63,870 nt of DNA, filler included, from Welwitschia mirabilis (GCA_051453625.1; 6 parts of one record of this genome joined end to end with filler, not necessarily neighbours in it), one strand, 5' to 3'. Positions 8,331-15,187 are shown, counted from the first letter of the whole stretch. Numbers and translations are program-made. The notes: generated by a model from the sequence alone, not told the origin.

Positions 8331-8583
8331 TCAAGAAAAGCAGACATGTCAACTTTGTGACTAGAAATTAATGAAGATTTAGATACAGAATCAATGATTG
8401 ATTATGATGACCAAAGATTTTACAAACATCAGAAGAAGAGTTCGCCACCAAAAGGCGATTACTGCACTACAATGAACTAATCAGCAAAAGGTAGGAAAAC
8501 AAGAGCTGTCTAATATCTTAGAGCATTCTATTGATTCCAAGAAAAAACAGAAAGATACTATTAGATAGTTAAGTTATATTATT

Positions 8584-9740
8584 TTGTATACAGATCATTT
8601 ATCACCAAAAATAGAGAAGATCTTAGAAGAATTCAATGGAGTAGAAGAAAACTTAGCTGCATTACAAAAGTATCAAGAAAAACAAAAACCAGAACAGAAG
8701 GAAGACAATCATCACGTAATAGAAGAAGCTAAGTCAGCACATAGAGCTGCATCAGAAACCTTAAAAGTTTCTCAAGATCCAAATTTATTACCTATGATTA
8801 GAGCCAACAAGAAAGTACATGTGCCACCACCTATGGTCCCGAAATTCAGAAAAGCAAAAGAAAAAGAATGTAAGCAAATGATGGCTAGAAGTCTTGAACC
8901 ATATAAATTAAGGGAAGCAAACAGGCAACCATTTACAAATCAGTCTGTTCCAGATATTCCTGAAATAAATATAGACAATGTAGCATATTAAGATATTGCT
9001 GCAATTATTCATACATGGAGCACTCATTCAAACGCCACAGCAGGATGGCAGATAGTACCAGAACAAGTAGTTGTTGCAATTGCTGTAGGACAAATTGCAG
9101 GGATGATTAGAAACTGGCAGCAAAATGCTAATGAAGCTAGTAAAATTCAAATTTTACAATCAGATATGAATACTTTAGTTCAGTGTCTATTAACAGAATT
9201 TGCACGAACTATGGATGATGTGAATCCTGAGTTTGATATTACATTACTTAGCAGAAGAAAATTAAAAGATTTAGCCAGATTTGAAGAATATGCAAAAGAT
9301 TATGCATCAGAAGCATATAGACTTGGTTTATATAGGAACACAAATGTTTTCAGCAATTGTCTTGCATCATTACCTCAAGGAATTGAAGCACAAGTGCTAT
9401 CGAATATTCAGAGGGATGGAAAGCAATTTCAGCAGTTATATTTTAATGACTTGATACATTATGTCAGAAAGGATTTAAAACATCTTTGTACAGAAGATCA
9501 AGTAAAACGAAGGATGCCAAAACTTTCAAGTGAAATCTGTAATCAATTAGAAGGAACAAAAACAAATGGCTATGAAAGGCAAAAAGCAGGAAAAAAGATA
9601 TGGCATACTATCAAAGAAAAGACCCAAGTAATATAAGCCCTATACTTGTATTACGAGATGAAGACAAACTAAAAAGCCTACAAAAGGAACAGTTTGTTGT
9701 GCTTTCAGTAAAAAAGATCGACTACTCTAATAGATGTCCT
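8584..9740 (+). pseudogene. Caulimovirid coat (capsid) protein remnant
   Basis: ORFs 8584-8991 and 9103-9636 are in the same frame, separated by one stop. INIDNVAY*DIAAIIHTW motif. Basic tail and degenerate Zn knuckle CCAFSKKDR.YSNRCP at 9695-9740. Confidence 0.75.
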
Positions 9741-10199
9741 TCAAAAACACCAACTAAAGTCAGATATTTATTTGAAATTCCAGATTTTGAAGACAATTTT
9801 GAGCTGATTGATAATGAAGAATTTTTTGCAGAATGTATTCAACACAATGCTGAAATATTTTGTATTGACACAATTGAATTTGAAAATATCTCCAGTACAG
9901 AAGAAATTGCTGATATAGTAGGTACTTATTATATGATGCAAAAATCATGGTATGATTTAGTTGAAAAAAAATCTGAGGAATCAGAAAAACAGAGGTCTTT
10001 ATCTGATAATTCTGATAAATCAATACTGCAATTATCATCATCATATTTAGGAGGTTGTGATGGATTATAGCTACACTTTTCTTGTTCGCAAGCAAATGGT
10101 TTCCAAAAGAAGTTGCTACAGATGGACAGAGATCAGCTAAAACCAAGAGAGTTAAAACATTCAGAAAAACTTCAATCTATAATCCAATTCAGATTCAGA

Positions 10200-10420
10200 C
10201 ACCACAGAAAACTCTCAAAAAGTATAGTGCATTGATTGACACCAGAGAAACCTTAAAGTGTGCTACAATTGATATATGCAAAGATTATTGCATTAAGTTG
10301 CCTATTCCATATAAAGTAGATATAATGAATGGATATAGAATGATTACTCATGTTGCAGTAGAAGTACCAATAAAGATCAGTAATTATATGTTAAAAGTAG
10401 ATTCAAGATCTTAAATCGGT
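10200..10420 (+). pseudogene. Caulimovirid aspartic protease remnant
   Basis: YSALIDTRET is a decayed ALIDTGA catalytic motif lying between capsid and RT. Confidence 0.7.
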
Positions 10421-10749
10421 TTTGGCATGGCTTTACTTCAGAAGTTTTACACTTACAGAAAATTCTCACATTCTTACTATTCAAGCCGAAAGATGTATTA
10501 TTCCTTGAGTGCCAGAAGAGTTTGTTTATGAAATCAATGAACGCAGCAAGCATTTTCAGAAGCCTCAAAATATTGTTAATATTATGCTTCATGAAATCAA
10601 TTTAGAGTCGGCAAAAGATACACATATATATAAGACTACAATTTCAAATACAGATTATATTTGGCAGTTATTACATCAATGTTTTGTTGAGCATCCACTT
10701 GAAAAATGGGATACAGTCTCCAATGGCAGCTATTCCAACCATTCATAAT

Positions 10750-12049: not shown

Positions 12050-13800
12050 GAATTTTCATCCAAAGATCTGAAGCCTAAGATGTATCAGATACAACATGCT
12101 GCAGAATTTCGTCGATCTCCATGGACCAAGACGAAGATACAACCTGAAGAAACAATAAGTGTTTCCAGTGAACACATTTCTGATGTTCAAAGGCAATGTA
12201 TCAAACAATTATTGGATTTGTTTGGATGGCATTTACAGCATGAATTTTATCTAGCCCCAGCCTATGTTAAAAATGAAGTCCTTGCTCCAAATATTCAAGA
12301 ATATGAGCAAGTATTTTGTAATGCTTTTTCCAAAGTTTGTTTAAAGCTCCAAGATCAATTTCAAGTTTCAACATTATGGACAGAAGGGAATCCAGAGCAA
12401 AGCACTGTTCAGATCCTTGTGTAAATCAAGCTTGATGGTATTGGCCACTTTCGCAATGGCAACAATCTTATTTTGTCTGGAAAATTATTTTGCACTCCAA
12501 GCAGGAGACAAAGGAGCATCGCGCATATCCGTAGTCTCTACATCTCCCTGACAACCGATGATATTCTTGCTTATGGTGGTAACAGTTTGGACATGCTCCA
12601 AATTCTTCATTTTTAGATACATCCATCGATGCCTTTCTTTATCATGATTATGTAAATACTGAACACTCTAAGCTAGGCATAGGAACTTTAGATTTCCTAT
12701 ATTACACTACTACTTTAAACCCTAAAAGGCCAGAGAGTTTACAACCTTTAGGAGGATGACCTTTTCATCTAATAGCCCTCTTAGAAAAACAAGAAGAGAT
12801 CACTGTTCATACCAGACTTAGTTGGTATGTATCCATTTATAGAGGGGACCTCTTAGAAATCCAATATAATAGTAATTGTCAACAATTACCATCAGTGCAT
12901 CACTTACACTTTTCCTTAAATATTCCTCTAGTTAGGAGATGGATTGCTAGTCCCTATATTTTACAGCTTTTAGCATCTTTCATAACTAAATCTCTAGTGC
13001 CGCCAATTAGGAACATGTTTTTGGGACGTGATAATCCTGAAAATAAAATTGAGGGATCTTGACTACCATATTCTACATCTGGCTCATATATTTCAATTCC
13101 TAAGATTGTTTCTGATCAGGTGTTCAAAGCAGTATTGCGTGGAAAAGGAAAAAGTTTCTTTCTGTAGTGAAAAAGGCATGTTGAAGACCAAGCTCAAGAA
13201 CGGATTCTTTATTTCGCCTGTTGCAAATATGTCACTTGGGAAACAGCACTGAGAGCGTTTAAAGCTCTCAACAACAAGTATCATAGACAACTTGCAAAGC
13301 TCGAAGAACGTCAGGAATATAATGAAAATTTGAATCCTATCTGTCCAACACCTGACGACTCTCTAAAATATTCCTCTGCCAAAGAAGAAACTCAAAATGT
13401 TTTGATATACATGATCTTTATCAACCAAAAAAACATTTTCAATATGGGAGTTCTTCTCAGGAAAGAGAAGCAGAGTATCTTAGAATATTGGCATCAGCGC
13501 AATATTTTTGAACAAGAAAACCTGTCAGGATACTCTCAACCAAATTCTCCAGTTATATGTACAGAATGTTTTGGAGCAGGATGTCCTATCTGTGATCCTT
13601 AGATCGAAGAAGAACTTAAGATGAGAGAAATTGAGAAACAATTTGAAGAACAGCAGATAAACAAAGCATGGAGAAGAAACAAAAAGAAACAAAAGTATGG
13701 TGACCTAGATATAAGTACACCATCAAATAGCCATTATGGAAGCCAGGACCCTATATATTCAAGCCCTATCCATAAAGTGGGCCCATAACCTACTTTCACT
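12050..13800 (+). pseudogene. Disrupted ~570-codon viral coding region of unknown function downstream of RNase H
   Basis: ORF 12080 is in the same frame as the RNase H ORF. Long near-open frames with isolated stops and about one frameshift near 12615. CTECFGAGCPIC at 13558-13593, then an E/K-rich segment and RRNKKKQK. Confidence 0.7.
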
Positions 13801-13949
13801 TCCTCTACTTTTCTTTGTTTTGCTTTCGAATCTTCCACAATGATAGTGGGATTCCAGATACTTTTTCTTCTCCTACTTTAATTTCTCCCGCTTTGACTTC
13901 TTCCACTTTATTCATCATGTATAAAAAGATACATGCATGCTTCCTCCCT

Positions 13950-14336
13950 CTTATATAACAAAGCCTATGTATCTTTTGTAAGTGTGAGATATTGTGGTAA
14001 TAGAATTTGAGAAGGTTTCCTATTGAGATGTTGTCTCCATTCTTGATCTTATGTTAATAGATCAGACCGGCAGTGATGCATTGTAAATCTGCACTCTGTC
14101 TGCCTTAGAACATTATCTCAGTGTGTAGTATCTCATTGCAGCTCGACTTCACTTTGTAGGAGTCACACTTTTGAGAAGTGTTGTCCCTTTCTCGCTGCTC
14201 ATTATCACTGACCATACACCGTTAATATCTGGTAGGATCACGATCCATCCTCCTAGTTATTAACAAAAAGGTTTAGCTCGTTTGTTCCCTTCAGTATATA
14301 ACCTCGGAATCAAGTTCTGATTCTTGATATTGGAGC
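13950..14336 (+). promoter_or_regulatory. Putative pregenomic-RNA promoter (TATA), structured leader and degenerate tRNA-Met primer-binding site
   Basis: TTATATAA at 13951. Nested complementary segments 14052/14258, 14071/14204 and 14139/14194. TGATATTGGAGC at 14325-14336 matches TGGTATCAGAGC at 9/12. Confidence 0.45.
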
Positions 14337-15187
14337 GATTCCAGTATAATAAATGGAACATCAAAGCTCATAATTTGGTTGAATTAATACAAATTTTTCC
14401 CAAAACTCTAGATGACCTTGCAAATGATGTCTTTCACAGTTATGCCATGTACATTTCTCATCCTATACAATAAGTCCTTAGGGTCTTATCTATGTAATTA
14501 AAAAAAATTTAGTTTCCATTTCACTATTTACGGTTTCTGTTAGATATTGTTGGTATTTTGATGAGGATTCTTTTCTTATAATAGACCTGAGATAACCTCT
14601 CTTTTGCTAACATTATAATGCTCAGATACAGCAAACTGAAGGGAATGCCTGAAAGGTGAAGAGTAATATTTCGTCTGACCTCCATGAGTACATACGTGAC
14701 AGGCATATTATCAATCAAAACAAAACCAAAAGTACCATTTTTCTGAGCATGATATTAAGTTGTATAAACTATAAACTGTAAATAAATGAAAAAAGGTTTT
14801 GATAGTAGAAGTCAGTCCACATATGGGCAAATAGGAATAACTACAATAGTGATTTTTGAAAATGACAATCCATAAGTTTCTAAGACAGCAACTTAAGAGA
14901 ACAAATCATTGCCTCATACCAATGTGCAGTATCAAATGAAAATGTCATTAGGCAAGATCCAAATAGGTGGCTAAATGTTTACGAAGTTTTGTTCTACAAA
15001 AAGCTCAACATTCAATGATGTGTTTTGTTTCAATTGCAACACAAATCATCTTATTTTGATAGTTTTTGCCAATGATAAAGAACATCATAAAATCCAATAG
15101 CAAGTCAAAAGTTAAAAACTAAGTAATTTGAAGGTTATTGCTGGTAAGAACTAAACTATTTTTCATATGGCAACAAGAATAAAATAC

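Follow-up and report, generated by a model that had tools for sequence, protein, structure and literature searches.

A decayed locus in plant DNA that is very probably a 5'-truncated endogenous caulimovirid of the WMV1/WMV2 clade

We analysed a 63,870-nucleotide stretch of plant DNA, filler included (hereafter the window), in which an earlier note had placed a near-complete endogenous caulimovirid at 8340..14340. [quoted passage not shown] With equally high confidence, the source of this fossil was a single-polyprotein pararetrovirus of subclade B.1, kin to Gymnendovirus 2. The segment is thus a new decayed locus, and a fairly ordinary one, within an already known and recently catalogued clade. 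No viral protein can be encoded by it today, it has no demonstrated function, and it is inert.

Residues 371-2051 of the 2111-aa WMV2 polyprotein have their collinear counterpart on the plus strand from 8445 to 13593. In a three-frame translation of 8100-14700 the viral protein relics are chained on this strand over all three frames, in the order capsid region, protease, reverse transcriptase (RT), RNase H and a C-terminal region of the WMV type. A tblastn search of the window with the WMV2 polyprotein returned collinear matches from residue 387 (8497) to residue 2051 (13593) and no viral homology beyond 13593. A frameshift-aware alignment paired WMV2 residues 371-1968 with 8445-13287 over 1483 codons at 37% identity, and needed 12 frameshifts and 20 in-frame stops to do so (~32 disruptions). 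The layout as one large polyprotein, proposed in the earlier note, matches the single 2111-aa open reading frame (ORF) of WMV2. The description as near-complete does not hold, as the first ~18% of the ORF including the movement protein (MP) is absent, a primer-binding site was not found and the reading frame is broken by the disruptions just given; measured against the 7648 nt of WMV2, the element makes up roughly two thirds to three quarters of a genome. The span first proposed is borne out by homology for 8445-13593, while none was detected in 8340-8444 and 13603-14340. The parts of the element are as follows.

8272..8444, no strand assigned: stretch between the edge of a copia element and the first viral homology (the alignment starts at 8445, tblastn at 8497)
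8445..9561, plus strand: linker and capsid region, matching WMV2 residues ~371-771
9690..9745, plus strand: zinc-knuckle relic, split over two frames
10061..10447, plus strand: aspartic protease region, by homology to the WMV1 protease
10756..11595, plus strand: RT, by its signature and a HMMER match to WMV2
11596..12058, plus strand: RNase H domain, spread over two frames
12077..13593, plus strand: C-terminal region of WMV type, by tblastn to WMV2, ending in CxxC...CxxC (13558-13593)
13603..14347, no strand assigned: trailing stretch that ends at a repeat boundary and may hold the ORF end and part of the viral non-coding region

A 280-residue piece of the RT, in which one TGA was read as X (the RT has a single in-frame TGA, at 11395), was used as the query for an exhaustive HMMER search of 1.84 billion proteins. 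The best match was the WMV2 polyprotein (E 1e-71, 48% identity), with 10,364 matches at E <= 0.001 and 18 at E <= 1e-30; at that E value in a library of this size, the likeness to WMV2 is therefore far beyond chance. A word-index search with the same piece gave 39 proteins among 634 candidates. When the window was read in homologous frames, RT identity was 54% to WMV2 (144/265), 51% to WMV1 and 49% to Pinus nigra virus 1 (PNV1). Two fragments, P0049 and P0055, did not exceed the closeness of WMV1 or WMV2 when matching RT segments were compared. The caulimovirid RT signature reported earlier is present as AAFIVRNHLEPKRGKPRMVINY at 10873-10935. RNase H lies on the plus strand together with RT, as had been claimed, and its Pfam family RT_RNaseH was recognised above cut-off in 11795-12049 (26.1 against 24.8); tblastn matched the RNase H domain as well. 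Identity to WMV2 was 41% over 135 aligned codons of RNase H and 50% for RT and RNase H together.

The RT is nevertheless a relic. A frameshift interrupts the Y-I-D remnant at 11252-11260; the alignment places the RT frameshifts at ~11179 and ~11259. A tandem duplication with a 60-bp period at 11012-11120 (49 bp, 94% identity) doubles ~20 RT residues and is a post-integration mutation. Its two copies (11012-11060 and 11072-11120) were the sole match when 8000-14999 was compared with the whole window by self-blastn; no long terminal repeat (LTR), flanking direct repeat or second copy was found in that comparison. Pfam was searched with 14 plus-strand ORF pieces, 11 of which had no family at all, and none of the 14 contained an integrase domain. 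The absence of integrase and LTRs noted earlier is therefore upheld over these pieces and this comparison.

Because RTs of Ty3/gypsy elements are detectably similar to this one (<= 89 bits, 32% identity), and because the window contains gypsy fragments at other places (4110-4580, 51259-51668 and 63576-63869), the segment could be read as what remains of the interior of a Ty3/gypsy (Metaviridae) retrotransposon, decayed and stripped of LTRs and integrase. We consider this highly improbable and already contradicted by the results given here. The four best word-index matches (E 1e-34 to 9e-32) are proteins without integrase, one of which bears the cauliflower mosaic virus peptidase family, whereas the lower matches are mostly integrase-bearing Ty3/gypsy polyproteins. 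No repeats flank the element, and both a caulimovirus coat domain and a C-terminal region specific to WMV2 are present. A quick tree of RT alone (72 rows) grouped the window with PNV1, WMV1, WMV2 and two fragments at a Shimodaira-Hasegawa-like approximate likelihood ratio test (SH-aLRT) support of 96. A quick tree of RT-RNase H (63 rows), in which the window was entered in homologous frames with X at each break, placed it with WMV1, WMV2 and two fragments (SH-aLRT 98). A careful RT-RNase H tree of 30 rows, built in the same way, recovered WMV1, WMV2, P0049, P0055 and the window as a group at 98/98, with PNV1 as sister at 95/88, and separated caulimovirids from Ty3/gypsy elements at 100/100 with the window inside the caulimovirids. 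The 72- and 63-row sets were hand-picked from 300 proteins, and the 30 rows are a hand-picked subset of the 63. The trees thus favour an endogenous caulimovirid over a Ty3/gypsy element.

The remaining domains survive in differing states of decay. The caulimovirus coat domain PF22909 was found in the ORF piece 8992-9636 (E 1.4e-7, 32.3 bits against a cut-off of 27), with the Pfam position at ~9244-9552, and tblastn with WMV2 residues 387-930 supported the capsid region at E 3e-27. Of the capsid with zinc knuckle described earlier, the coat domain is therefore confirmed, while the knuckle survives only as a relic at ~9690-9745 whose ligand positions have been lost to one stop, one substitution and one frameshift (~9719 by alignment); the intact WMV2 knuckle reads CWACKKEGHYANRCP. 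The protease is present as a homologous region, with WMV1 residues 1226-1311 matching 10205-10447 in tblastn (33% identity, E 5e-7). Its catalytic triplet is D-T-R at 10238-10246, where the translation is ALIDTRETLKCA against ALVDTGATSNFA in WMV2. An intact CCHC knuckle, DTG or DSG in the protease region, and YxDD were found in no plus-strand frame of 8200-14400. In one contig, the loose end at 9744 resembles a better-kept zinc knuckle from another copy; this is only a hint of a second copy, from one short contig, and at the present level of sequence identity the element is single-copy.

The C-terminal region was matched by WMV2 residues 1560-2111 in two tblastn hits with a joint E of 4e-21. 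When the WMV2 C-terminal region was compared by blastp with 299 proteins, WMV1 alone matched, and weakly (21.6% over 315 aa, E 6e-10); the WMV2 region had no Pfam family and no Atlas look-alike. The C-terminal region of the window had no detectable similarity to WMV1 or PNV1 (thresholds E 0.01 and E 1). By analogy of position, the WMV-type C-terminal region could stand where the P6/TAV protein of caulimoviruses does.

Several results weigh against this identification or limit it. The Pfam family RVT_1 was sub-threshold in 10606-11397 (20.7 against 29.6 bits), and the protease piece had no Pfam match. Two defining caulimovirid features, the MP and the primer-binding site, are absent from this copy. 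WMV2 residues 1-370 had no match in the window by tblastn or by the frameshift-aware alignment, and six MP-bearing N-termini gave only E > 2, although runs of N might hide an MP. Because its relative WMV2 has an MP, this absence reads as truncation of the copy. A search with the 12-base tRNA-Met primer-binding motif at up to two mismatches gave 3 matches where 3.09 were expected by chance; the sole match within the element falls in coding sequence, and none lies in 13603-14347. RT identity to all named relatives, 54% at most, is below the 62% genus-level threshold in a comparison that had OTU 1 and OTU 30 (operational taxonomic units) outside it, and because every named relative falls under that threshold, placement in a described OTU is not shown. 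Finally, the left junction (8266) is overlapped by only ~30 bases of a contig where the criterion for bridging was 31 on each side, and the right junction is bridged by none of the contigs listed.

These junctions bear on whether the copy is integrated at all. The left end of the virus abuts a truncated copia element:

7186..8271, minus strand: copia element, internally deleted and 5'-truncated (gag, then RT pieces), by Pfam

Its pieces are Retrotran_gag_2 at 7954-8271 and RVT_2 at 7682-7930 and 7186-7473. Summed contig depth was 13,669-27,365 over 7900-8361 (copia, two DNA runs) compared to ~8 over the virus body, and loose ends at 8266 show other copia copies continuing differently; the copia fragment is a member of an extremely abundant family. 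The contig that reaches the left junction is 2666 nt long, carries a second organism label and covers 8237-10900 at a depth of 8.3, differing by 16 substitutions and 2 indels. At the other end, a moderately repeated element begins, as marked by loose ends at 14348, 14351 and 14382 (depth 20-68, both sides, two DNA runs), and the viral insert probably ends on the right at this boundary (14348-14382).

With one junction unbridged and the other barely overlapped, with 28 runs of N in the window, and with WMV1 and WMV2 themselves described as circles assembled from gymnosperm reads (10.1101/2022.02.23.481439), the segment might be taken for episomal virus DNA or an assembly chimera and not an integrated copy. 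This has very little to recommend it, as no replicating genome could carry 12 frameshifts and 20 stops and the contig depth of ~8 is like that of single-copy host DNA. In addition, a contig that bears a different organism label extends over the virus body, starting just within the edge of the copia element, and CpG depletion in the element matches that of the host flanks (observed/expected 0.32 against 0.23-0.45). The stretch was found in 14 runs from 5 studies under two organism labels. There were no RNA records among the listed runs that hold the stretch. When about a quarter of each of two RNA runs was read, 26 and 20 reads were recovered in all, copia flank included; they fell on both strands over ~11.8-13.7 kb, with a depth no higher than 1.4, and most were only 95-99% alike.

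An integrated caulimovirid copy can be accounted for as follows. From what is understood of caulimovirid biology, viral double-stranded DNA in the nucleus of a germline cell would have been captured by illegitimate non-homologous end joining. The movement-protein end may never have been captured, or may later have been deleted beside the copia element, and the copy would then have decayed neutrally under host methylation. The density of stops corresponds, as a rough estimate, to ~0.07-0.10 neutral substitutions per site since inactivation. Together with general seed-plant substitution rates, this suggests an integration age of tens of millions of years with a wide error.

The earlier note had also raised the possibility of an undescribed lineage. 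The survey of Vassilieff et al. (2026, PMC13308828) screened 93 genomes and recognised 71 OTUs at 62% RT identity, and against that threshold the RT identities of 54%, 51% and 49% to WMV2, WMV1 and PNV1 would fit a genus-level caulimovirid lineage outside any described OTU, sister to WMV1/WMV2 and distinct from OTU 1. Moreover, no closer representative was present among the 1.84 billion cluster representatives, and the nearest fragments, P0049 and P0055, were no closer than WMV1 or WMV2. We nonetheless regard such a lineage as unlikely. Decay inflates the distance and accounts for part of the gap below 62%: before some 0.07-0.10 neutral substitutions per site had accumulated, the RT may have been ~65% identical to that of WMV2. 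Each library representative stands for a cluster formed at 50% identity, behind which closer members may be concealed. OTU 1, known here by the survey's list and counts, stands beside WMV2 in that list with 1309 copies (PMC13308828). The claim of an undescribed lineage is weak, as the element groups within the WMV1/WMV2 clade (98/98) that the survey catalogues as B.1, and it is best described as possible but unlikely. The name B.1 was taken from that survey (PMC13308828), which gives it to WMV1 and WMV2, and our trees were built from sequences other than named Petuvirus, Caulimovirus, Soymovirus, Cavemovirus or Florendovirus members.

The known viruses nearest to the element are WMV1 and WMV2, each assembled as a circle with one ORF from gymnosperm sequencing reads and sharing 48.2% RT-RNase H identity with one another (Debat and Bejerman, 10.1101/2022.02.23.481439). 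WMV2 (GenBank BK061148) is a 7648-nt circle (10.1101/2022.02.23.481439) whose 2111-aa polyprotein bears MP, Peptidase_A3, RVT_1 and RNase H; the polyproteins of WMV1 and PNV1 measure 2264 and 2129 aa. The element shares with WMV2 the same domain order in one polyprotein, membership of the same 98/98 clade and a ~500-residue C-terminal region with a terminal CxxC...CxxC, and WMV2 is its top match in the protein library. However, WMV2 is an intact circle, whereas the copy in the window has no movement-protein end and is broken ~32 times, and identity between them is 54% for RT, 50% for RT-RNase H and 37% over the whole alignment. WMV1 and PNV1 are also single polyproteins and fall in the same or the sister clade, and the protease region of the window matches WMV1 (E 5e-7), but their RT identities are lower (51% and 49%) and the C-terminal region of the window is not detectably similar to either. 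PNV1 belongs to the Gymnendovirus 2 gp P. glauca OTU, and in Diop et al. (2018, PMC5766536) Gymnendovirus 2 branches as the sister of all other clade B members. A scan of IMG/VR with WMV2 as the query gave 25 caulimovirid genomes, with best-segment identities to WMV2 of 28-34%.

In the survey's lists, WMV1 and WMV2 are assigned to subclade B.1, and Welwitschia holds 75 copies, 50 of WMV2 type and 25 of WMV1 type (PMC13308828). OTU 1, which stands beside WMV2 in the OTU list, is likewise endogenous in gymnosperms, and also in ANA-grade angiosperms; its RT copies are counted in eight genomes, namely Gnetum montanum (465), Cycas (285), G. gnemon (213), Wollemia (204), Araucaria (79), two species of Nymphaea (39 and 23) and Amborella (1) (PMC13308828). 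Petuvirus (Petunia vein clearing virus) resembles the source of the element in having a single large polyprotein without integrase and in belonging to clade B (PMC5766536, PMC13308828). It differs in its placement in subclade B.2 (PMC13308828), whereas the window groups with WMV1 and WMV2, which are assigned to B.1.

A host gene lies beyond the right-hand end of the element:

21048-20956, 20862-20740 and 15316-15188, minus strand: three exons of a host RABC (Rab18-type) GTPase, a 100% match to transcriptome protein P0304 (209 aa)

The intron between the last two of the exons found is ~5.4 kb. A search of the window for the exons that would encode residues 1-63 and 176-209 found neither, so that the virus and the copia piece may lie in the last RABC intron or just downstream of the gene. 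The element is on the strand opposite the RABC gene, at least ~0.85 kb from that gene's last recognisable exon. In a 36-row RABC tree the gene paired with Ginkgo (SH-aLRT 89), outside Amborella and other angiosperms (93), on a long branch. Judged from this sequence, the host is likely a gymnosperm, and the non-flowering host proposed earlier is therefore likely as well, albeit at weak support values. The long RABC branch and the kinship of the virus would allow a guess at Gnetales.

Other repeats were noticed elsewhere in the window. Further copia gag and pol pieces occur at 26.8-28.7 kb, 31.2-31.5 kb and 33.6-39.6 kb. Near-identical copia ORF pieces with a Pol beta-barrel domain lie at 35808-36206 and 36769-37341 on the minus strand, ~1.1 kb apart and beside a 100-N gap; they are either tandem or nested copies or an assembly duplication. 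The Ty3/gypsy fragments mentioned above, on the minus strand at 4110-4580, the plus strand at 51259-51668 and the minus strand at 63576-63869, comprise an integrase zinc-binding domain and RT or RNase H pieces and are unrelated to the caulimovirid. An assembly gap occupies 5939-6890. A pair of 44-N runs with 12 bases between them occurs five times (7138-7237, 34331-34430, 42209-42308, 46306-46405 and 49942-50041). At least the first two of these pairs sit inside copia RT-like sequence, so that the pattern has the look of a single recurring repeat segment being masked rather than of gaps in the assembly.

Plant DNA viruses have left their fossil record chiefly as endogenous caulimovirids, and it is the gymnosperm copies that anchor the deep history of this virus family. 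Taken alone, one more decayed locus in a clade mapped by the 2026 survey (PMC13308828) is of small value. Because it occurs under two organism labels, however, the locus could serve as a dated marker. Because the C-terminal region is still recognisable in an old fossil, it already belonged to these viruses before this integration. It is conceivable, if doubtful, that the element represents a third branch beside WMV1 and WMV2, with the C-terminal domain already present, that integrated tens of millions of years ago into a gymnosperm, possibly one of the Gnetales. If so, the locus would provide a minimum age for single-polyprotein viruses of the WMV type and for their unexplained C-terminal domain.

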